DNA of 52,202 bases from a virus, in the IMG/VR virus record IMGVR_UViG_3300000154_000010; one strand, given 5' to 3'. The position numbers and the translations under genes are program-made. Positions 2,241 to 24,645 of this stretch are shown here, piece after piece. The notes beneath the pieces are model-generated. The model searched no databases and was not told the DNA's origin. It saw only the letters and a list, made by a program, of their open reading frames with translations. Every line of letters begins with the position of its first letter. The stretch's first letter is position 1.

Positions 2241-2855
2241 TTACTCTCCTCTAATAATGTCGTTAATAATTTCTTCTACTTTACAGTATTTGTTACACGT
2301 TCTACCATCTTCTACTTTCTCTACTCCTTCTTTAAGTGGATATAAAAATGCACCGTGTGTGCTTGGATTACTGACAAAATCAAATGCAATTAACTCAAAA
2401 TCATCTCCTACTTGTTGACCATCACCCTCCTTTAGTGGTTCTACTGAACCCATACCTCTTGACGAAATACCTAATTTTATTCCTGCCTTAAATAATTCCG
2501 TTAGAATATTTCCTGATGGTGTCCCTAATACTTCTACTGTTCCTACTAAGTTTTTTCCTTCCCAATGCATTTCAGTAATATTGTGAGATACATTTTGTAA
2601 ATTTACCACGGATGATTCTGGATGGTCTAATTCACCCATTGCTCGTTTTTGATTAATAAATCCTTCAGAATATTTCGTTGCTTCACGAGCTAATATCTTG
2701 CCTGGATAAACTCTACCATTCTGGTTTTTTGCATCTGCTCGCTGTAATACTCCATGCACTACGAGACGACCCTGATTAGTTTTTAGTGATTCAGTTATTT
2801 GTTCCCGTGAAATTTCAAACGGGAGATAATCGACAATCAACTGCCTATTACTCAT
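2241..2855 (-). CDS. gp21: T4-like prohead core protease
   Basis: Motifs GVLQRADAKNQNGRVYP, GELDHPES, GISSRGMGS, FDFVSNPSTHGA typical of gp21-family proteases. Confidence 0.93.
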   Translation of the reverse strand: MSNRQLIVDYLPFEISREQITESLKTNQGRLVVHGVLQRADAKNQNGRVYPGKILAREATKYSEGFINQKRAMGELDHPESSVVNLQNVSHNITEMHWEGKNLVGTVEVLGTPSGNILTELFKAGIKLGISSRGMGSVEPLKEGDGQQVGDDFELIAFDFVSNPSTHGAFLYPLKEGVEKVEDGRTCNKYCKVEEIINDIIRGE

Positions 2856-9216: not shown

Positions 9217-10794
9217 TTATTTTATTAACCATGTTAAATTTTCTTTTTCTCCAGCAACTTCCATTTCCCAAGAATCATTTCTATTATCCATTGGTTGGTA
9301 AACTGCTTCGTAATCTAATGTTCTACTTAATACATCTTTCTGTAATGCTATTCCTTCTGATTTTAATCTTAATGCTGTATCTCTAACCCACATACCTATT
9401 GCAAGACTGATTGAAAGATCATCATTATATCCTTCCATTGCCTGTGCCTTAAAATTGTGGTAAATAAATACAAACAATTCTTCTATCAATCTAGATGAAT
9501 GAACTATTACAGTTTTTTCTCTAAAATACTCTTCTAATTTTGCTATTACTAATGGTCGTGTTTTCATGGTCATACTGAAACCCGGGACCATCTTTTGATC
9601 CATATTTCTATATTTATTTGATATTTGACGCTGAACATCCACGTAGTGTAAATCCTTACTCGTATAAAACAAATTATCATAATCTCTGTCTATAACTTGC
9701 TGTATTGCTGCCCAACCTATTGATGCATTTTCAATAACGAGTAACGCGTTGTTATATTCTACTGCAGTATTCATACATAAATTACCAAAATCTTTTGTGG
9801 ATATTTTTCCTTTATATTCCGCTACTTGTTCCATTTTCTGTACATCTATTACGTGGAATGCTGAAAAGTCATTACCATCACCACGGGCAACGTCAGCACT
9901 CAATACATAATCTTGTGTGTAATCTGGTGGTCTCCATATCCATAAATTACTATCAAATCCCCTTTTTTCCATTGGTTCTTCAATGTGGGTATTTTTATAT
10001 TCTTCAAGTATAACACCATCAATTACAGTTTGACCAGATGTGATGAATGAGCAATCACATTCTTGTGCTGCCATTGAAGGACCTAATAGTTTATCTTGGT
10101 CATCTCTCCAATCTTGTTCCCTATCTGGGTGTACTGTCCAATGGAGTTTAATGAAATTCCAATCATTTTTCCCTTCTTCAGCTCCAGCCCATGTTTTATG
10201 AAACCAATTTCCTACTCCATTGGGTGTGCTTAATGCAATACATTGACCACCAGTAGATAAGGTACTTTGTGCCGCTGTCCATATTGCATCAATTTTTGGA
10301 ATAAATGAGGCTTCATCGAGTATCAATAATGATAATGCTTCTGATCTACCACTATCTTCACCACTGGAAATTGCCTTTACTTGTGAACCATTTGAATATT
10401 TTAAAGATAATTTATTATCCTCCGTACAACTGGATTTTACCCAATTTGGAAGATTAGCATGCATAACTCGTATTTTTGTTACGAGATTTTTTGCTGTATC
10501 CTGTTTGGTAGCAATAACCAATATATTCTTGTCTGTTTGAAAGGTCATCATCCATAATGAATAACCAGCTACGAGAGTGGATATTCCTAACTGACGAGCT
10601 TTGAGAATAATATTATAATTGTGCTTATTAAAATCTTCTAATGTTTTTTCTTGGAAATCATATAAGGAAAATGGAATTTTACCGTCTATTGGATGTTGAA
10701 TGACAGCATACTTTTTTAGAAAGTATATTGGGTCTTTAGCACACTTTATGTATTCGGCTTTTATTATTTCTTTTATGTTTTGGCTATTACTCAT
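9217..10794 (-). CDS. gp17: T4-like terminase large subunit
   Basis: IILKARQLGIST, LLILDEASFI (Walker B), STPNG, QECDCSF, nuclease motif ADVARGDGNDFSAF. Confidence 0.96.
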   Translation of the reverse strand: MSNSQNIKEIIKAEYIKCAKDPIYFLKKYAVIQHPIDGKIPFSLYDFQEKTLEDFNKHNYNIILKARQLGISTLVAGYSLWMMTFQTDKNILVIATKQDTAKNLVTKIRVMHANLPNWVKSSCTEDNKLSLKYSNGSQVKAISSGEDSGRSEALSLLILDEASFIPKIDAIWTAAQSTLSTGGQCIALSTPNGVGNWFHKTWAGAEEGKNDWNFIKLHWTVHPDREQDWRDDQDKLLGPSMAAQECDCSFITSGQTVIDGVILEEYKNTHIEEPMEKRGFDSNLWIWRPPDYTQDYVLSADVARGDGNDFSAFHVIDVQKMEQVAEYKGKISTKDFGNLCMNTAVEYNNALLVIENASIGWAAIQQVIDRDYDNLFYTSKDLHYVDVQRQISNKYRNMDQKMVPGFSMTMKTRPLVIAKLEEYFREKTVIVHSSRLIEELFVFIYHNFKAQAMEGYNDDLSISLAIGMWVRDTALRLKSEGIALQKDVLSRTLDYEAVYQPMDNRNDSWEMEVAGEKENLTWLIK

Positions 10795-12093: not shown

Positions 12094-12206
12094 TTTTTGC
12101 TCCTACAATTATTGAAATGATATCGTTTCATATTAGTTACTCCTCCAGTTTTATCACAGTTAGGACAAGTATCTATTTTTTGTTTATGTATCCGTCCTAC
12201 AATTTT
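12090..12206 (-). pseudogene. Out-of-frame second copy of the endonuclease C-terminal Cys module
   Basis: Shifted frame reads KIVGRIHKQKIDTCPNCDKTGGVTNMKRYHFNNCRSKK*, paralogous to SRVECPSCGVVGGINLMHRYHFENCR; its TGA overlaps the ATG at 12093. Confidence 0.8.
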
Positions 12207-12882
12207 CAAAATGATATCGATGCATCAAATTTATTCCACCAACTACACCACATGATGGGCATTCAACTCTTGAAAATTTCATACCTGTTCTGCCAATGCT
12301 CATATTTCGACATCGTTCTTTAGATAATGGTATGCCCATTAACGCATCACTAATACTTTTACGATGAGATTCTGTTAATTTTTTTTCAGTAAGACCTTTG
12401 CTAATATTATTACAATGTTCTTCAGATTTAGTTACTCCAAACATTGTCTTACTAATATTTTTACGATGTTCATCAGATAAATTTCTACCCAGCAAGCCTT
12501 TACTAATATTCATAGAATGTTCTTTAGAACGAATTCTTCCTTTTAATGATTTGCCTTTTTTCTTATTTGATTCTTCCGAAAAAATATGATTAAATCCACC
12601 AGTAGTCATATTATATCCGGTTCCCTCATCCATAAAAGTATTATATTCTTTAATATAATATGATTCCATTTTATTTAACTCATCCATAGAATTACACTCA
12701 CATATAATACCCCACTTAAAATTTTCTATGCCATATTTACGAAGTGCATTATGAAAATAAAAATTTGAATTTCCATTAAATGCGCTCTGGCAATGACCTT
12801 TTTTTCTATCTTCCAATGTCTTAATCGTCTGACCAATATAAGATTTATCATTTATTTCATTGTGTGCTCGATAAATAATCAT
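12184..12882 (-). CDS. GIY-YIG homing endonuclease with NUMOD3-like repeats
   Basis: MIIY..NDKSYIGQT, ALRKYG, E..YIKEYNT..GYN; repeated (L/H)SEEH(R/C).NISK.L.G units; C-terminal CPSC..HFENC. Confidence 0.9.
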   Translation of the reverse strand: MIIYRAHNEINDKSYIGQTIKTLEDRKKGHCQSAFNGNSNFYFHNALRKYGIENFKWGIICECNSMDELNKMESYYIKEYNTFMDEGTGYNMTTGGFNHIFSEESNKKKGKSLKGRIRSKEHSMNISKGLLGRNLSDEHRKNISKTMFGVTKSEEHCNNISKGLTEKKLTESHRKSISDALMGIPLSKERCRNMSIGRTGMKFSRVECPSCGVVGGINLMHRYHFENCRTDT

Positions 12883-16772: not shown

Positions 16773-18476
16773 CTAATCTACATTACGGTCTAAATACATT
16801 TGAGATACAACTTCTGGAGTATTTTTCTTTAATAAGTTTTTCATATTCTTAATTCTATTAATTGTCAATATTATACTTTTTCGTGTATCTTCACGTTTCT
16901 TTGGAATGGTTACTAATTCATCACCATCACTTTTAAATTCAGCGGCTATTGATTTAACACTTGCTTCAAGTTTAACCAAATAACCTTCAAGTCCAGTTGG
17001 GTCTACCTTAATGCGTTTAACCAACTCTTTTTCTGCGTTCTGTAAATCATTCATGTATTTCCAATTGCGTTCTTTACGAGCAGTAAACTGATTTTTATCT
17101 ACTATCTTGACCACATTTCCATCAGGAACATATAATACAAGTCCTTCATCTTCTTCACCAAATGCACGTTGAAAATCTACTTTCAATACTTTACCTTTCA
17201 TCTTTTTACCAATCAAATTTGCTATTCTCTGTATTTGATATTTGATTTTTTTATGGTGTGGTTTTCTTGCTGGGGTATTTAATAAATTTCCATATTTTTC
17301 AATCATCTTACTTAACAAAATTTCATAACTTTCTTCAAAATGAACTTGTTTTAAATTTACTTTTGGATTTGAAAAGAATTTAATGGTAGTTTTCTTATTT
17401 GCTTCTTTAGCAAATACATCGTGAAATGCTATTGGAGTTTCTACACCATCAACTATTATTTTAAATAATACTACTATACCATCACCAATTTTTTCTGGAT
17501 CATATAATACTATATTGTAATCCCATGATGGTATTGCCTCACATTCAATAGATATGTTTTTAGTATTACCTTCAATGCCAAATTTCTTTGCATATTTATC
17601 TACTATTTTCTTATATGGAATTTTCTTTAATAATTTATGATACTTTACGAAATCTTCATAAAAATATAATGAAGGATAATCTTTTTCGTGTTTAACAGTT
17701 TTAGTTTTTGATCCTGAATAAAACCCTCCACCCCTTATTCCAAATTGGAAAAAGTGACCATCTACCTTTTCATTAACTTCAAATTTTGTATTGTCGGCAT
17801 TCCACAGTTTTAAGAAGTTTAATAAATCCTTTGGTTTCATATCCTCTATATGTTTAATACCTTCTGTTAAAACTCCCTCTGTGATACCAAATTTCGTCTT
17901 AAAGATACCATATACGGACTTATTAACTTTACCGTATAGAGTTTTAAATGCATCCTTTGGATTATCACCTTTGAATGCATTTCTAACAACAGTTCCACTA
18001 ATAGTTTTTCCATCAATTTTCATTTGAAGTTGTGGGACAGTAATTACATATCCTTTTGTTTCAAAACTTTCCATATCTTTACCTGTATATGGGTTATAAT
18101 ACTTTCCACTTAATCTACCAGCATCCTTTTCACCGAGACCAACTACCAACGCAGTAGTTTTCTCATCAAACTTAGACTTTATCTCTACAGTATTATATGG
18201 ATTTTTAACTTGAATGATGTTAGATTTTGGAACTTTAAACATTTTAGATATTATAGCTTCTTTTTCCTTAAAATCAAATGGTGATTTACCATCAGTTTTA
18301 TTTGAAGTTCCTATAAATACATTTTTCTTACCGAATTTTTTAACTAAGAATTCGTATGCGTGATGATGTCCTTTATGATATGGTTGGAATCTACCGGAGT
18401 ATACTGCTATGGTTTTTTTTATTTCACCAGTATCTTCCAATAATTCTTGTATTAACTGTGTTGCTAATTTACTCAT
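16773..18476 (-). CDS. HIGH-motif cytidylyl/nucleotidyltransferase fused to a putative KxDG ligase-fold domain
   Basis: YSGRFQPYHKGH at the N-terminus; after a GVLTE linker, VNEKVDG (motif I), ECEAI, EGLVL, VKIVDK. Confidence 0.7.
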   Translation of the reverse strand: MSKLATQLIQELLEDTGEIKKTIAVYSGRFQPYHKGHHHAYEFLVKKFGKKNVFIGTSNKTDGKSPFDFKEKEAIISKMFKVPKSNIIQVKNPYNTVEIKSKFDEKTTALVVGLGEKDAGRLSGKYYNPYTGKDMESFETKGYVITVPQLQMKIDGKTISGTVVRNAFKGDNPKDAFKTLYGKVNKSVYGIFKTKFGITEGVLTEGIKHIEDMKPKDLLNFLKLWNADNTKFEVNEKVDGHFFQFGIRGGGFYSGSKTKTVKHEKDYPSLYFYEDFVKYHKLLKKIPYKKIVDKYAKKFGIEGNTKNISIECEAIPSWDYNIVLYDPEKIGDGIVVLFKIIVDGVETPIAFHDVFAKEANKKTTIKFFSNPKVNLKQVHFEESYEILLSKMIEKYGNLLNTPARKPHHKKIKYQIQRIANLIGKKMKGKVLKVDFQRAFGEEDEGLVLYVPDGNVVKIVDKNQFTARKERNWKYMNDLQNAEKELVKRIKVDPTGLEGYLVKLEASVKSIAAEFKSDGDELVTIPKKREDTRKSIILTINRIKNMKNLLKKNTPEVVSQMYLDRNVD

Positions 18477-18625
18477 CTTCGTCCACCTTTATCAAAGTCC
18501 TTTGAAAACTTCTGTAATTTACCAAATGCTCTAAACTTTTTCATTTTCTCTTGTTTACTCCATTTCATTTTATCAAATACTTTCATTCTCTCCGTTAGTG
18601 GAAGTAGTGATGACAATTTAATCAT
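18473..18625 (-). CDS. Small basic protein (50 aa) with MIKLSSLLPLTE leader
   Basis: Manual translation; below the ORF-track cutoff; ATGA overlap with the next gene. Confidence 0.75.
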   Translation of the reverse strand: MIKLSSLLPLTERMKVFDKMKWSKQEKMKKFRAFGKLQKFSKDFDKGGRR

Positions 18626-19142
18626 ATTTTACCAACTGTGACTTCATTTTTATATGTGGATATTTCCGTTTTAATTTCTTTACTGCATTTACATTTTTAT
18701 TGGAATCATCGAAAAATGCTATATCATCGTATCCTTTTTTGATTTGGCCTTCTACCCAATCCGCTTTCTTTTGTGGATTTGCATCTGCAAGTGCTACTAC
18801 AAATACATCTCCGTGGCCACTATCCTTAAAAAATTGTCTGACTGGTTTATATTTTGATCTGGCTGTAAGTATAGTTAGACGACGATTTCCAACTGCACTA
18901 TGTATTCTCTTAAATACCTTAAACATACTTTTTATTTTTTTAGGGTCTATTACTTTATCAAATTCTGAAAAATCTATTTCATCACCTGGTTCTGGTTTAT
19001 ATACTGCGTATAGTCCTGGTGTCATTGTTATTTTCTTTCCATTACGCATTAAATAAACTTTAGAATTAGATTTTACTAGTGTATCATCAAAATCAAATAC
19101 TCGGAGTTTTTTTTCTATTAATAAATCTTTAAGTTTTATCAC
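18618..19142 (-). CDS. HAD-superfamily phosphatase with MIKLKDLLIE leader
   Basis: RVFDFDDTL (DxD), ILTAR, FFDDS..N motifs. Confidence 0.85.
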   Translation of the reverse strand: MIKLKDLLIEKKLRVFDFDDTLVKSNSKVYLMRNGKKITMTPGLYAVYKPEPGDEIDFSEFDKVIDPKKIKSMFKVFKRIHSAVGNRRLTILTARSKYKPVRQFFKDSGHGDVFVVALADANPQKKADWVEGQIKKGYDDIAFFDDSNKNVNAVKKLKRKYPHIKMKSQLVKYD

Positions 19143-20103: not shown

Positions 20104-20385
20104 CTATCCTCCAAACCTACTGTTTTTCCACATCAACTTCTGCAATCTTTCATACTCACGTTGTTGTTCTGGTGATATTTTAATTGTTTTCAATGGCCCA
20201 AATATTCTTTGTTTTCTACTGTTTTGTTTATAAACATCATCCATCTTCTTTTCATCTTTATCTACTGCAATTACTTTTTTAAGGTTGCTACTTACCACTA
20301 TCCAATATCCAGCCTTTCTCATTTCTTGTGCCTTGTCAATAGTAATGTCTACTTTTTCGTTTAGTAAATCTATTAGTTTAATCAT
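20104..20385 (-). CDS. Hypothetical protein with MIKLIDLLNE leader
   Basis: Leader motif; ATGA-coupled. Confidence 0.85.
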   Translation of the reverse strand: MIKLIDLLNEKVDITIDKAQEMRKAGYWIVVSSNLKKVIAVDKDEKKMDDVYKQNSRKQRIFGPLKTIKISPEQQREYERLQKLMWKNSRFGG

Positions 20386-20939
20386 TTTATACCCATCAAC
20401 TCTAATTCTTTTTCCCAGAATAATCCGTATACGGCTAATGCATTGACTTTAACTAACACATTCATTGTGTTTCCAACGTGAAATACTTCTTGTTCATTTC
20501 TTTTTAATCCAACTTCTTTTCCAATCTTACCTAACCACTTATAATTACCAACAAAATTATTATCTATTTTAGTAATAATAATTGATTCTGGATAATCGGG
20601 CTTAGCATTATATTTAGCAAACTTTTGAGCTAAATCAAAATTATATGTAAATGATTGTACTGGTCGTCTTGACCTATACTTCATTTTTAAAAACAACCAT
20701 TTGTCATCTCGTTTAGCTATTTTTAGTTTTTTTAAATCTTTTTTAGATATAGCCGTTCCTCTATACACTTCACCACTAATCGGGTTTAATTCTTTTGAGT
20801 ATTTAGATTTTTTTGAATACAAAGATTTAATAGTAGAATCTATTTTAGTAGTTCTTTCACCGCCAGCTTTCATATACTTTTTTAACATTTCTATTTCAGT
20901 ATCTAAGTTTTCTGTCAATAAATATTTTAGTTTGATCAT
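20382..20939 (-). CDS. Putative ADP-ribosyltransferase (R-S-E clade) with MIKLKYLLTE leader
   Basis: VYRGT ... QSFT..F..AQKFA ... EQEV catalytic pattern. Confidence 0.65.
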   Translation of the reverse strand: MIKLKYLLTENLDTEIEMLKKYMKAGGERTTKIDSTIKSLYSKKSKYSKELNPISGEVYRGTAISKKDLKKLKIAKRDDKWLFLKMKYRSRRPVQSFTYNFDLAQKFAKYNAKPDYPESIIITKIDNNFVGNYKWLGKIGKEVGLKRNEQEVFHVGNTMNVLVKVNALAVYGLFWEKELELMGIK

Positions 20940-20975
20940 AATTTATCTCCTAATAATAAAAAGCTATGTTTAGTT

Positions 20976-21071
20976 TCAGTTCTTACAATATGTACGTACT
21001 TTTGCCAATTGCCGTTTTGTAATGATATCCGCATCTAATAATAGGTGCCCTAATTTTGCATCACCATTCAC
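20976..21071 (-). pseudogene. 31-aa ORF resembling one MshEN-like half motif, possibly truncated
   Basis: AGGAG RBS, GTG start, MNGDAKLGHLLLDADIITKRQLAKVRTYCKN*. Confidence 0.45.
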
Positions 21072-21086
21072 TTTACTTCTCCTTAT

Positions 21087-21356
21087 TTACCCCTTTAATA
21101 ATTCGTGATATAATTTGTCAAGCATAATTTTGGTAAAAGCGTCATATTCACTTAATGCACTTTTAATCAATTTATTTGAAGCACTCGAATATTCTTTTGA
21201 TTTGGATTTAGCGAACTTTTTTAATTCCTTACCAAAATCTTCAGCTTTATTTCCAATAGCCAAATACTCATCGTCATCATGTGGATGATAATAATCATTC
21301 TCATTCAAGAGCTCTTCCCGAATCATTTCTTTTAATTGTGTTTTAGATATTTTCAC
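21087..21356 (-). CDS. Hypothetical protein with MKISKTQLKEMIREELLNE leader
   Basis: GTG start; 35 nt (21312-21346) identical to 20055-20089. Confidence 0.85.
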   Translation of the reverse strand: MKISKTQLKEMIREELLNENDYYHPHDDDEYLAIGNKAEDFGKELKKFAKSKSKEYSSASNKLIKSALSEYDAFTKIMLDKLYHELLKG

Positions 21357-21357
21357 T

Positions 21358-21960
21358 TCATTTCTCCAATGAATTTACAATGTTCATAATGCCCTTATTT
21401 CGTTTTTGGGCTCCATTATGTGTGGATAATCCCTTTTTACCTGCAAAATTCTTTTCCAATGACTTGACTATTTTTGGGTATGCTATTCCACCACCACTTT
21501 CGGCCCATTTTCTACTTCCCCTTTCTATTAATTTAGAGGCTTTATTTAATTTCATCGTCATTATCTTGGAAGTCTTTTCATGCCAAAATTTAACTTCATT
21601 ATCTTCAATTTGTAATATGACTATTTTACTAATACCATTTAACTCAATCCAATATACAGTTAAGGGGGCAATATACATTGATTCATTTAATGTATTTTCT
21701 TTAACTAAAATTTTTGATATATACGTTGAAATTCTGAATTTAGTTCCGGCTACAGGGACCAAACCCTTATCTTTAACTTTCTGTGTAATATCATATTTAC
21801 CATTTCCCAATTCTTTAATGAACCAATCACTTTTACCGACTCTACCTTTCCATATTTGTTTTTCTATCATATGTTTAATGGCTCGCTTGTCGGTAGCGGT
21901 AAGGTGTCCGTCTAATACTTTTATCTTTATTTCATTGAGTAGGTCTTTGAGTTTAATCAT
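21358..21960 (-). CDS. Two-module hypothetical protein with MIKLKDLLNE leader and internal TLNE linker
   Basis: Leader motif; KENTLNE-SMY midway. Confidence 0.85.
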   Translation of the reverse strand: MIKLKDLLNEIKIKVLDGHLTATDKRAIKHMIEKQIWKGRVGKSDWFIKELGNGKYDITQKVKDKGLVPVAGTKFRISTYISKILVKENTLNESMYIAPLTVYWIELNGISKIVILQIEDNEVKFWHEKTSKIMTMKLNKASKLIERGSRKWAESGGGIAYPKIVKSLEKNFAGKKGLSTHNGAQKRNKGIMNIVNSLEK

Positions 21961-21972
21961 AATTTATTCCTA

Positions 21973-22881
21973 TTAAAAGTAGGCGTCACCACCTCTATCT
22001 GAAATCCATTTGTTGATGTCTTTGGGTTCATTTGTTATTTCTATTTTATTGCCAAACATCTTTTTAGCTTTTTCTATTTCTTTTCTTTTTTGTTTACCTT
22101 CAGTTGAATTATAGTCATCTTCAAATACTTCGTCGTCATAGTAATACATATCTTCTATATACCCCAATACATCCACTACCATAATTTTGTCAACCACTAA
22201 TTCGTTCCACCACCAATCACCTGTAAATGGGTGTGGTTCTCCGAAATGTTTATTTAATTGTTTTTGATGTGTCTTTATTACTTTGACAACACCCTTCTCA
22301 TATAAATTGAATACTTTTTTCACTCCCCTTTTATCTAACGTATTTCCATCTTTATCTTCTAAGTGACTAAACAGGCCGTGTACATTTCTTTTATATTTTA
22401 ACTTTAACTTGCGTATAATGTCATCAAAAATAAAAGTCATCTTTCCTTTTATTTTATCACCTATTTTACTATCTGATGCTTTATTTAATAAATAAGTCAA
22501 TGACGATGAAAATTGTGGTTCAGTTGATACCCACCTCATTCCAGTTTCATCTGGTCGAGACATTATATCATCGGAAGAAGCTATTTTCAATTTACCTATC
22601 ATATGGACAAGAAACCCACCATCGGTTCTAATTCCACTTAGATTTCCTATATTACTTTGAGAAGTTGTAGTAAATGTTGAAAGTGCCTTTGATGTACCTT
22701 GAAGTTTTTTTAGATTTACCAATCCTTTAAAATCCGTTACATGAAATGTTGGAATATCTACATCACCTACAATTACATCTACCACTTTTTTTGATAATGG
22801 AATCATAGTAGAATCCATCATATTTAGTTGAGAGTCTTCCCAAGATATTACTTCATATAATAAATCTTTTAATTTAATCAT
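21973..22881 (-). CDS. Hypothetical protein with MIKLKDLLYE leader (weak ART-like pattern)
   Basis: Leader is clear; FHVT..STFT..WNELVV is only suggestive of an ART fold. Confidence 0.75.
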   Translation of the reverse strand: MIKLKDLLYEVISWEDSQLNMMDSTMIPLSKKVVDVIVGDVDIPTFHVTDFKGLVNLKKLQGTSKALSTFTTTSQSNIGNLSGIRTDGGFLVHMIGKLKIASSDDIMSRPDETGMRWVSTEPQFSSSLTYLLNKASDSKIGDKIKGKMTFIFDDIIRKLKLKYKRNVHGLFSHLEDKDGNTLDKRGVKKVFNLYEKGVVKVIKTHQKQLNKHFGEPHPFTGDWWWNELVVDKIMVVDVLGYIEDMYYYDDEVFEDDYNSTEGKQKRKEIEKAKKMFGNKIEITNEPKDINKWISDRGGDAYF

Positions 22882-22884
22882 AAT

Positions 22885-23205
22885 TTATCTCGGTGGGTTA
22901 TAATCCCACGGTCCCCAATGTTCGTGTTTTAACATATTTATCATTGTTTCTTCAACTGAATATTTGTGAATCTTTTTACCATTCGCTGGTATTCCACCTA
23001 ACTCATAGTATTTCTTTTTATTAAGTATTATTTTTCTATTATTACTGAAATCTAATACCATCCCACCTTTCTCAATCCAACAATGACCGAATGGTTTGCC
23101 ATTAGTGGATAGTATCGCAAGACCATGACACAATACTAAATCTTTATCGTGTCCTTTACTAACAAATCTACCGTTAGCTTCGTAGCAATCACCTTTACCT
23201 GCCAC
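22885..23205 (-). CDS. Small papain/transglutaminase-like protein (putative Cys-His-Asp triad)
   Basis: GDCYE ... GHCWIE ... VLDFS. Confidence 0.55.
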   Translation of the reverse strand: MAGKGDCYEANGRFVSKGHDKDLVLCHGLAILSTNGKPFGHCWIEKGGMVLDFSNNRKIILNKKKYYELGGIPANGKKIHKYSVEETMINMLKHEHWGPWDYNPPR

Positions 23206-23981
23206 TATCTCTTCTTCAACATTTTTTGTTTTTCAATCCACTTTTTAGCTTGTCTATTCTTAATAGGTGCCTTTATAAATTTACCAATACCTTTACCGAC
23301 CAACATATTAAATTTACTTGTTGCTTGTTTTGTACTTAAATGTTTATTATTGTCAACTAATAGGAAATTGGCATTTCCAAATAACCCCTGGAAATAAGCC
23401 ATATTCTTTTGAACTGAATGCCAATATTTTTCAACAACATGAGCTGGTAATCTTCGTGGTCTTTCTTCATTTCGCTGTTGTGCAATTTCCAATGAAGTAT
23501 TTACAAATACCATGAATGTATCATATCCCAATTTCATTAAATCTTGTCGTTCATTCTTTACATCTTTAAATTTATGACCCGTACCATCAATAATAACACC
23601 CAATCTACCTTCTGTATAATTTTTTAGTCGTTGTTTACTTAATGCTTTTGTACGAGTTCTCATACCACTGTAATCATCGTATTCTGGGTCAGTAAGTTGT
23701 TTGAATAACTCTTCTGGCATATTGTCAATGTCGACAGTTCCAAAATATTTTTTCATAAATTTTTCTAATTCAGTATCTTGATTAACCATTTTTAATCCGG
23801 TATAGGATACGCTAACTTTTTTGGGTATTCCGAATAATTGAGATGCAACGTAGGTTTTGCCTGAATTGTGGACATTAACTTCTGATTTTCCCACATAATA
23901 ATTATGATTATTATTTATTCGTAAATCATATACATATTTTTTATCATATTTTATTAGCTTAATTGATTTAATTTTCACCAT
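23205..23981 (-). CDS. Split-intein C-fragment (39 aa) fused to the C-extein of a zeta-toxin/AAA_33-like P-loop kinase
   Basis: IntC block F VYDLRINNNHNYYV and block G VHN/S (23865-23981), then SGKT (rest of Walker A), VNQD and GVIIDGTG. Confidence 0.92.
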   Translation of the reverse strand: MVKIKSIKLIKYDKKYVYDLRINNNHNYYVGKSEVNVHNSGKTYVASQLFGIPKKVSVSYTGLKMVNQDTELEKFMKKYFGTVDIDNMPEELFKQLTDPEYDDYSGMRTRTKALSKQRLKNYTEGRLGVIIDGTGHKFKDVKNERQDLMKLGYDTFMVFVNTSLEIAQQRNEERPRRLPAHVVEKYWHSVQKNMAYFQGLFGNANFLLVDNNKHLSTKQATSKFNMLVGKGIGKFIKAPIKNRQAKKWIEKQKMLKKR

Positions 23982-24234
23982 ATTCTCCGTGATTTTTAAT
24001 AAATCTAATATTTTGTTTTTCTGACCAAAATATTTCTTTATTTTTTAATAGTGATTTTATATTTACCATTGATATATGACAATAATCACCATCCCATTTT
24101 TTACGTGAATTAACATAGCTACAGTAACGTCTATTATTAAATTTAAAATTACACCTATCACATTTATATGATATACTTTGACCTGTATGTGGGTTTCCTG
24201 TTTTAGTATAAATTAAATCAGTTGCTAATAACAT
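23968..24234 (-). CDS. Cys-rich ORF between the split-intein halves (possible endonuclease remnant)
   Basis: CDRC..RYC..YC; overlaps both flanking intein ORFs; different frame. Confidence 0.65.
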   Translation of the reverse strand: MLLATDLIYTKTGNPHTGQSISYKCDRCNFKFNNRRYCSYVNSRKKWDGDYCHISMVNIKSLLKNKEIFWSEKQNIRFIKNHGEYGEN

Positions 24235-24596
24235 AATACGTCATCACCATCTTTCAAATCCTTTGCCATAATCCAGTTACCATTCGATAGTCTTATTTCA
24301 TGATCTAATGTACAAACAACAGTTTCACCAGTTTCCAATTCTATATTTACCATTTCAGTATCAGCATCGTACTTAAAAAGTTCAACTACTTCTGAAATTT
24401 CTGATTTACCTTTTGTGTTCAATGTCCAAACTCTTTCACCTTTAATTACTTCAGATATTTTAGTATATCCAGTTTCAGTTTTTATTAATGTATTTTCATC
24501 GAAGCAACCTGGACCACCGGCAAGGAATACCGCTTTGAATATGCCTGGATCATTTACTCCCTCGTTTAATTGTATAAGATCTTTTAATTTAATCAT
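24225..24596 (-). CDS. Kinase N-extein (30 aa, MIKLKDLIQLNE leader, ..FLAGGPG) fused to split-intein N-fragment (93 aa)
   Basis: Block A CFDENTLI starts at codon 31 (24506); block B TLDH; ends KDLKDGDDVLCY*. Confidence 0.92.
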   Translation of the reverse strand: MIKLKDLIQLNEGVNDPGIFKAVFLAGGPGCFDENTLIKTETGYTKISEVIKGERVWTLNTKGKSEISEVVELFKYDADTEMVNIELETGETVVCTLDHEIRLSNGNWIMAKDLKDGDDVLCY

Positions 24597-24637: not shown

Positions 24638-24645
24638 TATAAATA
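24638..24645 (-). promoter_or_regulatory. Putative late-promoter motif TATTTATA
   Basis: In the 24597-24672 gap at the boundary between glycan and virion modules. Confidence 0.5.

Follow-up and report, generated by a model that had tools for sequence, protein, structure and literature searches.

The stretch of DNA analysed here, the IMG/VR virus record IMGVR_UViG_3300000154_000010 (52,202 nucleotides (nt), all of it referred to below as the window), comes from a marine T4-like phage and has all of its genes on the minus strand. One of them, which encodes a small P-loop kinase, is broken inside its Walker A motif by a natural split intein. Its upstream part (the N piece) is an open reading frame (ORF) for the first residues of the kinase, the N-extein, followed by the N-terminal half of the intein (IntN), its downstream part (the C piece) is an ORF for the C-terminal half of the intein (IntC) followed by the C-extein, and between the two lies a third, shorter ORF, with an overlap of 10 nt on the side of the first and of 14 nt on that of the second (Table 1). 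The two outer ORFs are 243 nt apart and share a frame in which six stop codons intervene. A fusion of the three ORFs by readthrough or frameshifting is ruled out by these stops, and also by the middle ORF, which in every allele is in a different frame and has its own start. The coordinates and features given for the two outer ORFs in a preliminary description of the window were confirmed, and its counts of charged residues (20 acidic and 10 basic in IntN, 3 acidic and 8 basic in IntC) proved exact on recounting.

The split is not a product of assembly. Counting independent contigs in records from NCBI, JGI, ENA and Logan assemblies, we found the exact sequence of the N piece on 183 contigs, that of the middle ORF on 156 and that of the C piece on 124 (and on a further 107 in a form that starts at GTG). 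More than 100 concordant contigs for each exact piece rule out an artefact, and an indel that would hide one contiguous intein ORF, a possibility raised in the preliminary description, is excluded in practice by the same counts. The intein at this locus is a real, naturally split one, and the phage gene that it interrupts is fractured.

A small revision concerns the start of the C piece, for which the preliminary description proposed a GGAG ribosome-binding site and an IntC of 39 residues. The GGAG is present, 3 nt from an ATG at 23981 and 6 nt from a GTG at 23978, and 39 residues is the correct length from the ATG, but relatives of the C piece start with M-K-[VI]-K-S and the 257-residue form is recorded on those 107 contigs (74 and 33), so that the GTG appears the likelier start, which would make IntC 38 residues long.

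The exteins and their kinase family

Joined at the proposed junction, the exteins would give a protein of 249 residues in which AGGPGSGKT is restored; the Walker A motif is complete only once they are joined. This product matches uninterrupted genes of the same family. It equals in length a contiguous orthologue on another viral contig (L004:2650-3399), which is identical at 27 of the 30 N-extein residues and at 124 of 217 aligned C-extein residues. Further contiguous homologues were found by tblastn in phage genomes, namely those of Pelagibacter phage HTVC008M, Methylophilales phage Melnitz, Agrobacterium phage Atu_ph07 and Ralstonia phage RsoM2USA, and all of these alignments begin at residue 39 or 40 of the C piece, that is, at the first residue of the extein. 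The C-extein is 38-40% identical to the HTVC008M and Melnitz genes, whose proteins read through the junction with an uninterrupted GGPGSGK[TS], preceded by a D-P-x-I-F-K-A block that is also found in the N-extein of the window. An exhaustive, profile-free search extended the family to 1656 representatives, nearly all of which again align from residue 39 or 40, and in a 45-member alignment every invariant (16/16) and every near-invariant (22/22) column of the family is kept in the two exteins of the window.

The earlier assignment to a Zeta-toxin/AAA_33-like kinase is borne out by Pfam. The C piece matches AAA_33 with 28.7 bits (cut-off 27), and the contiguous orthologues exceed the gathering scores of both Zeta_toxin (PF06414, 41-50 bits) and AAA_33 (PF13671, 38-55 bits). 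A profile of the family matches PSTK at an expectation value (E) of 2e-7, Zeta toxin at 1e-5 and the kinase domain of Clostridium thermocellum Pnkp at 1e-4. A structure model of the L004 orthologue (predicted local distance difference test (pLDDT) score of 91.3) has Zeta toxin, Pnkp kinase and adenylate kinases as its closest folds, with a template modelling (TM) score of ∼0.5 and 16% identity, and Foldseek gives E ∼5e-7 to Zeta/PezT toxins and to the Pnkp kinase domain. The Zeta/PezT toxins and the Pnkp kinase domain are thus the best fold and profile matches of the family as a whole, but identity to them is only ∼16% at a TM score of ∼0.5, and by profile PSTK scores better. Taken together, profiles and model place the extein among the P-loop phosphotransferases of the Zeta/Pnk/PSTK group. 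The matches, which range across Zeta toxin, Pnkp kinase, PSTK and adenylate kinases, do not point to a single substrate. No partner antitoxin was noticed, no candidate for one having been examined.

In some relatives (P0037 and P0040), the kinase domain is fused to a cytidylyltransferase-like domain in proteins of 1200-1500 residues, which hints at a shared pathway. The window keeps the kinase and a cytidylyltransferase-like gene (16773..18476, 567 residues) apart, at a distance of ∼5 kb, and also holds an ORF similar to the HAD-type phosphatase of "polynucleotide kinase" at 18618..19142.

The two intein halves

Each half of a split intein can match only part of a HINT model, and with this limit the Pfam matches to both halves are far beyond chance. 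The N piece aligns with the N-terminal part of PT-HINT at 28.9 bits (cut-off 27.7) and of Intein_splicing at 35.3 bits (cut-off 35.8), and the start of the C piece matches positions 121-155 of the 155 in Intein_splicing, followed by AAA_33. The residues of class-1 splicing are all in place. Cys1, directly after GGPG, is kept in P0003-P0006, in P0201 and in the alleles that carry a contiguous, cis-splicing intein. Block B, T-L-D-H, is identical in the four alleles of the window lineage, and its His is retained in P0201 (T-E-N-H) and in the cis allele P0053 (T-K-G-H), being lost only in one decayed copy (L003, described below). At the other end, V-Y-D-L, H-N-Y and V-H-N followed by Ser+1 are conserved in the window and in the loci L015, L016 and L013.

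A search of 5.8 billion proteins returned relatives of IntN at 99, 75, 65 and 56% identity, all four ending at the same final residue, and in their loci (L016, L015 and L013/L014) a matching IntC-kinase gene lies downstream. Across these split alleles, Cys1, T-L-D-H, the residues of blocks F and G, the terminal H-N and Ser+1 are identical. Pairwise ratios of nonsynonymous to synonymous substitution rates (dN/dS) are 0.17-0.30 for IntN, 0.09-0.13 for IntC and 0.09-0.44 for the C-extein; the values of the intein halves equal or fall below those of the C-extein, and both halves are under purifying selection. The class-1 features, their conservation in four alleles and this selection uphold the central claim of the preliminary description, a split intein inside the Walker A motif. 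A more distant match to IntN residues 79-121 occurs in a 1437-residue ORF on a viral contig (L012:460-4773), which appears to carry two intein-like insertions.

The halves are also predicted to dock into one HINT fold. A model of residues 21-123 of the N piece with residues 1-55 of the C piece reached a score of 0.76, where the best of three controls had 0.00; contact agreement between runs was at least 89% and the partner pLDDT at least 68. The mark for this test is reached by 58 of 80 solved complexes and by 2 of 110 mismatched pairs, counts that hold roughly for the present pair, for which our own alignments were used. Among PDB sequences, the best match of IntN is NrdJ-1 (E 1.7e-4 over 43 residues), and gp41-1 is matched at E 0.08.

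Docking raises the question of whether the halves do anything beyond it: they could be non-covalent docking domains that hold the kinase fragments together without ligation, comparable to the endonuclease-split phage nrdA, whose parts come together through interaction domains. For a phage gene that a homing endonuclease has split, reassembly without a covalent bond is on record (PMC3045599), and L003 retains both ORFs despite having lost Cys1, the block B His, the penultimate His, Ser+1 and Walker A. Against this stand the conservation of all residues of the splicing chemistry in the window and three other alleles, and the dN/dS of IntC, the lowest of the locus. An unexcised HINT domain would, moreover, part GGPG from SGKT and make ATP binding unlikely. 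We consider docking without ligation very improbable, and the split intein is probably competent for splicing.

Table 1. Features of the fractured kinase gene in the window (aa, amino acids).
Feature	Positions	Strand	Basis
N piece: ORF of 123 aa (30-aa N-extein and 93-aa IntN)	24225..24596	-	ORF translation
Leader: first 12 codons of the N-extein (MIKLKDL..LNE), similar to the T4 capsid targeting sequence, ending L-x-E	24561..24596	-	likeness to the T4 capsid targeting sequence
N-extein: 30 aa, last residues GGPG, the first half of Walker A	24507..24596	-	alignment with the contiguous L004, HTVC008M and Melnitz orthologues
IntN: 93 aa and TAG stop; starts with Cys1 (block A), ends LCY-stop; block B T-L-D-H	24225..24506	-	Pfam HINT-family matches, allele comparison
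Middle ORF: 88 aa, endonuclease relic; frame differs from the outer ORFs	23968..24234	-	tblastn against the intact endonuclease
Deletion junction within the relic	24024..24093	-	blastn against L016; abutting tblastn segments
GGAG ribosome-binding site of the IntC gene, within the 3' end of the relic	23985..23988	-	sequence reading
C piece: ORF of 258 aa (IntC and 219-aa C-extein)	23205..23981	-	ORF translation
IntC: 39 aa (ATG 23981) or 38 aa (GTG 23978); block F V-Y-D-L .. H-N-Y, block G V-H-N	23865..23981	-	Pfam Intein_splicing, conservation
C-extein: 219 aa and stop; Ser+1 of S-G-K-T, then 215 residues, the rest of the kinase	23205..23864	-	AAA_33 match, orthologue alignment

The middle ORF and the allelic series

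In three related loci, a free-standing endonuclease gene lies intact between the two halves and on the same strand. Those of L015 and L016 encode 289 residues in the same overlapping layout as the middle ORF of the window, and that of L017 encodes 346. The 289-residue endonucleases match Tn7_TnsA-like_N (PF08722, cut-off 26.5) with 32.2 bits (P0028) and 33.4 bits (P0029), as well as phrog_15427, "endonuclease"; their R-P-D-F .. E-V-K-P core, which is common to P0202 and absent from the window, is similar to "endonuclease" genes that adjoin or lie inside the terminase genes of T4-like phages. A phmmer search with P0028 against all PDB sequences matched neither Vsr nor I-Bth0305I at E up to 10, and the endonuclease found nothing below E 0.3 among PDB sequences; its predicted structure has a pLDDT of 49.

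The 88-residue ORF of the window aligns by tblastn only to the two ends of P0028, residues 1-55 corresponding to positions 24234-24076 and residues 248-285 to positions 24093-23980, so that ∼192 residues, including the nuclease core, are missing. At the nucleotide level, 48 nt of the window are left unaligned opposite 642 nt of L016 (blastn), a loss of ∼600 nt. In comparison with the intact genes, dN/dS of the short ORF is 0.34-0.87, and between the intact genes it is 0.24, which indicates relaxed constraint. The ORF is an in-frame deletion relic of a free-standing homing endonuclease of the PD-(D/E)xK (TnsA-like) type. The window locus represents a post-endonuclease stage of the fractured gene.

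The relaxed constraint on this deletion relic, together with the absence of the kinase from some related phages, could also suggest a decaying pair of pseudogenes, in which the kinase was inactivated when the endonuclease invaded and is no longer used. Both outer ORFs are intact, however, with all invariant family residues present, dN/dS is well below 1 in the intein halves and in the C-extein, and identical sequences are abundant across many samples, which leaves very little probability for decay. True decay of the locus is illustrated elsewhere, on a GC-richer viral contig (L003:1437-2587) in which the N and C pieces abut and are 33% identical to those of the window, and in which Cys1, the block B His, the penultimate His, Ser+1 and the G-K-[ST] of Walker A have all been replaced. 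This copy is best described as a decayed split with both ORFs kept, possibly a non-covalent, two-subunit derivative.

Other alleles fill in further states. Cis mini-inteins sit at exactly GGPG|C...HN|SGK in P0053 (383 residues) and P0050 (387 residues), and a LAGLIDADG-containing intein occupies the same insertion site in P0135 (617 residues). P0177 (621 residues) has a LAGLIDADG intein three residues downstream, after G-K. Since LAGLIDADG-type inteins thus occupy two points three residues apart, several intein lineages target this Walker A loop. The cis alleles share the insertion point of the window but are single polypeptides, with either a short linker or a LAGLIDADG domain in the place that a stop, the relic ORF and a new start take up in the window. 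P0053 is 45% identical to the N piece in an alignment over residues 1-123 and 39% identical to the C piece in one that runs from residue 4; because only a few linker residues separate the two alignments, the split of the window lies at the canonical point of endonuclease insertion. With cis-splicing and LAGLIDADG inteins found at this site as well, the split form amounts to one stage in the usual life cycle of an intein.

A second fractured lineage is found at L017:482-2749, the locus of P0097, where a 136-residue N piece, 43% identical to that of the window, is followed by the 346-residue ORF and then by P0097 as the C piece. The C-terminal half of the 346-residue protein is homologous to the 289-residue nuclease (35% identity, E 2e-26), and its N-terminal region is different and contains repeats. 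In view of this homology, one endonuclease family has fractured two intein lineages of the kinase. In L013, the endonuclease is reduced to a relic of 28 codons, whose first four residues are those of the window's. The contig of this allele (L013:1-4933), like L014, has 20 in-frame TGA codons spread over 8 genes and lacks TAA and TAG in frame. Two of the TGA codons occupy Trp positions that are conserved in IntN, and the contig appears to belong to a T4-like phage in which TGA is translated as Trp (code 4).

Origin of the split, the leader and known systems

These observations are most simply accommodated by the following course of events, which we hold to be highly probable. A phage P-loop kinase would have had an ancestral mini-intein in its Walker A loop (GGPG|SGKT), and a free-standing PD-(D/E)xK homing-endonuclease gene would have invaded that intein at the canonical endonuclease-insertion point, bringing with it a stop to end the upstream half and, for the downstream half, a ribosome-binding site and a start. 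A later in-frame deletion of ∼600 nt would have removed the nuclease core and left the 88-residue relic overlapping both halves. The three ORFs are probably on one transcript and probably translationally coupled. The N piece, consisting of the leader, 18 more N-extein residues and the acidic IntN, would associate with the C piece through charge-complementary strands to form one HINT domain, and class-1 trans-splicing would begin with an acyl shift at Cys1 and continue with transesterification to Ser+1, then cyclisation of the terminal Asn and finally an O-to-N shift, releasing a 249-residue kinase with its P-loop intact.

Several points weigh against this explanation. No transcript signal rises above chance: between 22800 and 24800 there are 16 sigma-70-like promoters where 12.6 are expected, and no intrinsic terminators. 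The intein fragments are only remotely similar to characterised split inteins, so that activity cannot be carried over from a close relative, and the docking pass may reflect recall of, or likeness to, solved split-intein complexes. L003 shows that such a layout can survive the loss of the splicing residues and of Walker A. The T4 late-promoter motif TATAAATA is likewise not enriched (13 copies, 15.4 expected), its copy at 24638-24645 being on the wrong strand, and the RNA fold of the region between the halves is not notable (z = -1.86).

The N-extein adds a further element, the leader, an N-terminal amphipathic stretch that resembles the ∼10-12-residue capsid targeting sequence of T4 internal cargo, which ends in Glu and is processed by a gp21-type protease (PMC8442874, PMC3012670). 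A near-identical leader heads three other minus-strand ORFs of the window, starting at 22881, 21960 and 20385 (within 20104-22881), for which no Pfam or PHROG family match was found, and a looser version stands on the cytidylyltransferase-like ORF. In the kinase family, many members have the leader directly before a conserved EGVxDPG block, and P0161 begins with a near copy of the T4 sequence (taken from PMC8442874). The window also encodes a T4-type portal, a large terminase and, at 2241..2855, a gp21-type prohead protease (Peptidase_S77, 90.8 bits). Because of this protease, it is plausible that the leader directs the kinase, once spliced, into the prohead and is cut after its Glu, which would be consistent with what is known of T4 internal proteins (PMC3012670). 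T4 internal proteins are, however, small, basic and not kinases, whereas the leader of the window is a diverged variant and sits on a kinase.

If the leader acts in this way, only the spliced product would join it to the kinase body, and the split might have been co-opted as a timing or safety gate, with trans-splicing required both for activity and for loading into the prohead of a potentially toxic, Zeta-like kinase destined for injection into the next host. The placement of the leader on the N piece and of the catalytic body on the C piece would suit such a gate, as would the T4-like character of the leader, the gp21-type protease of the window and Zeta_toxin being among the best family and fold matches; a break inside Walker A would mean zero activity before ligation. 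Most relatives, however, including one with a 90% identical N-extein, are contiguous and bear the same leader, so the intein is not needed for function. The allelic series fits the life cycle of a selfish element. We give a gate only a slight probability, and the same leader on contiguous relatives argues that the intein is a selfish passenger rather than a required gate.

The fractured-gene explanation has close precedents. Dassa et al. (2009; PMC2677866) described split inteins in fractured genes from marine phage metagenomes (gp41-1 to gp41-8, NrdJ-1, IMPDH-1, NrdA-2, DnaE-2 and others), covering eight kinds of enzyme that act in DNA synthesis and repair, with endonucleases of the GIY-YIG or Vsr-like type; their report does not use the word "kinase". 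In 15 of their loci, the 3' end of the endonuclease gene overlaps the downstream intein half, which was read as the invader supplying the downstream start. Our kinase gene has the same order on one strand (N-extein-IntN, free-standing endonuclease, IntC-C-extein), the same kind of overlap over the start of IntC, the break in the canonical endonuclease-insertion region, and a negative IntN with a positive IntC, so that the likeness in size and charge to known split pairs pointed out in the preliminary description extends to the whole pattern. It differs in its host, a small Zeta/AAA_33/Pnk-like kinase, in its endonuclease, which here is a deletion relic, and in its intein, which is only remotely related. 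The 289-residue endonuclease differs too, being assigned by Pfam to Tn7_TnsA-like_N and not to the new Vsr-like/EDxHD family of that study.

The cyanobacterial DnaE inteins (Ssp and Npu), with halves of ∼100 and 36 residues, are likewise natural class-1 split inteins with Cys1, the same structural break, an acidic IntN and a basic IntC. Their halves are, in contrast, encoded far apart in the genome, without an endonuclease, and the +1 residue is Cys, where the halves of the window are 243 nt apart and are followed by Ser+1. The P-loop is a hot spot for inteins, as in DnaB, MCM, RFC, RecA and other ATPases (Novikova et al., 2016; PMC4760082), and the insertion inside Walker A conforms to this, but the hosts in that survey are replication and repair ATPases with mostly contiguous inteins, and no kinase is listed (PMC4760082). 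With P-loop inteins and fractured genes of marine phages both well known, the finding is less surprising than first thought.

The arrangement is known from other phage genes and not from this enzyme family. Full-text searches for inteins with zeta toxins or pelagiphages turned up no publication on a natural intein in these kinases, in keeping with the preliminary description, which named none. The small P-loop kinases of the Zeta/AAA_33/Pnk type thus form a new class of host protein for natural split inteins and fractured genes, and one gene family displays nearly every proposed stage of the life cycle, namely 1) a LAGLIDADG intein, 2) a cis mini-intein, 3) a split with an intact endonuclease, 4) a split with an 88-residue relic, 5) a split with a 28-codon relic and 6) abutting, decayed halves. 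The series is a natural test bed for the model in which invasion by a free-standing endonuclease creates split inteins. The pair of 93 and 38 or 39 residues (Cys1, Ser+1, Gly at -1 and, behind the junction, Ser-Gly-Lys) is remote in sequence from the characterised fast split inteins and exists in four natural variants, which make it a sensible candidate for orthogonal protein ligation. Should the leader be a capsid targeting signal, the kinase family would count among the injected cargo of T4-like marine phages, and should the split act as a gate, it would be a natural example of intein-controlled cargo loading.

Elsewhere in the window, tblastn revealed neither another intein nor a second copy of the endonuclease of the split kinase. 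The window does carry a second mobile nuclease, a GIY-YIG homing endonuclease at 12184-12882 on the minus strand (phrog_314, E 1e-33), whose gene lies, in gene order, shortly upstream of the large terminase gene (9217..10794).

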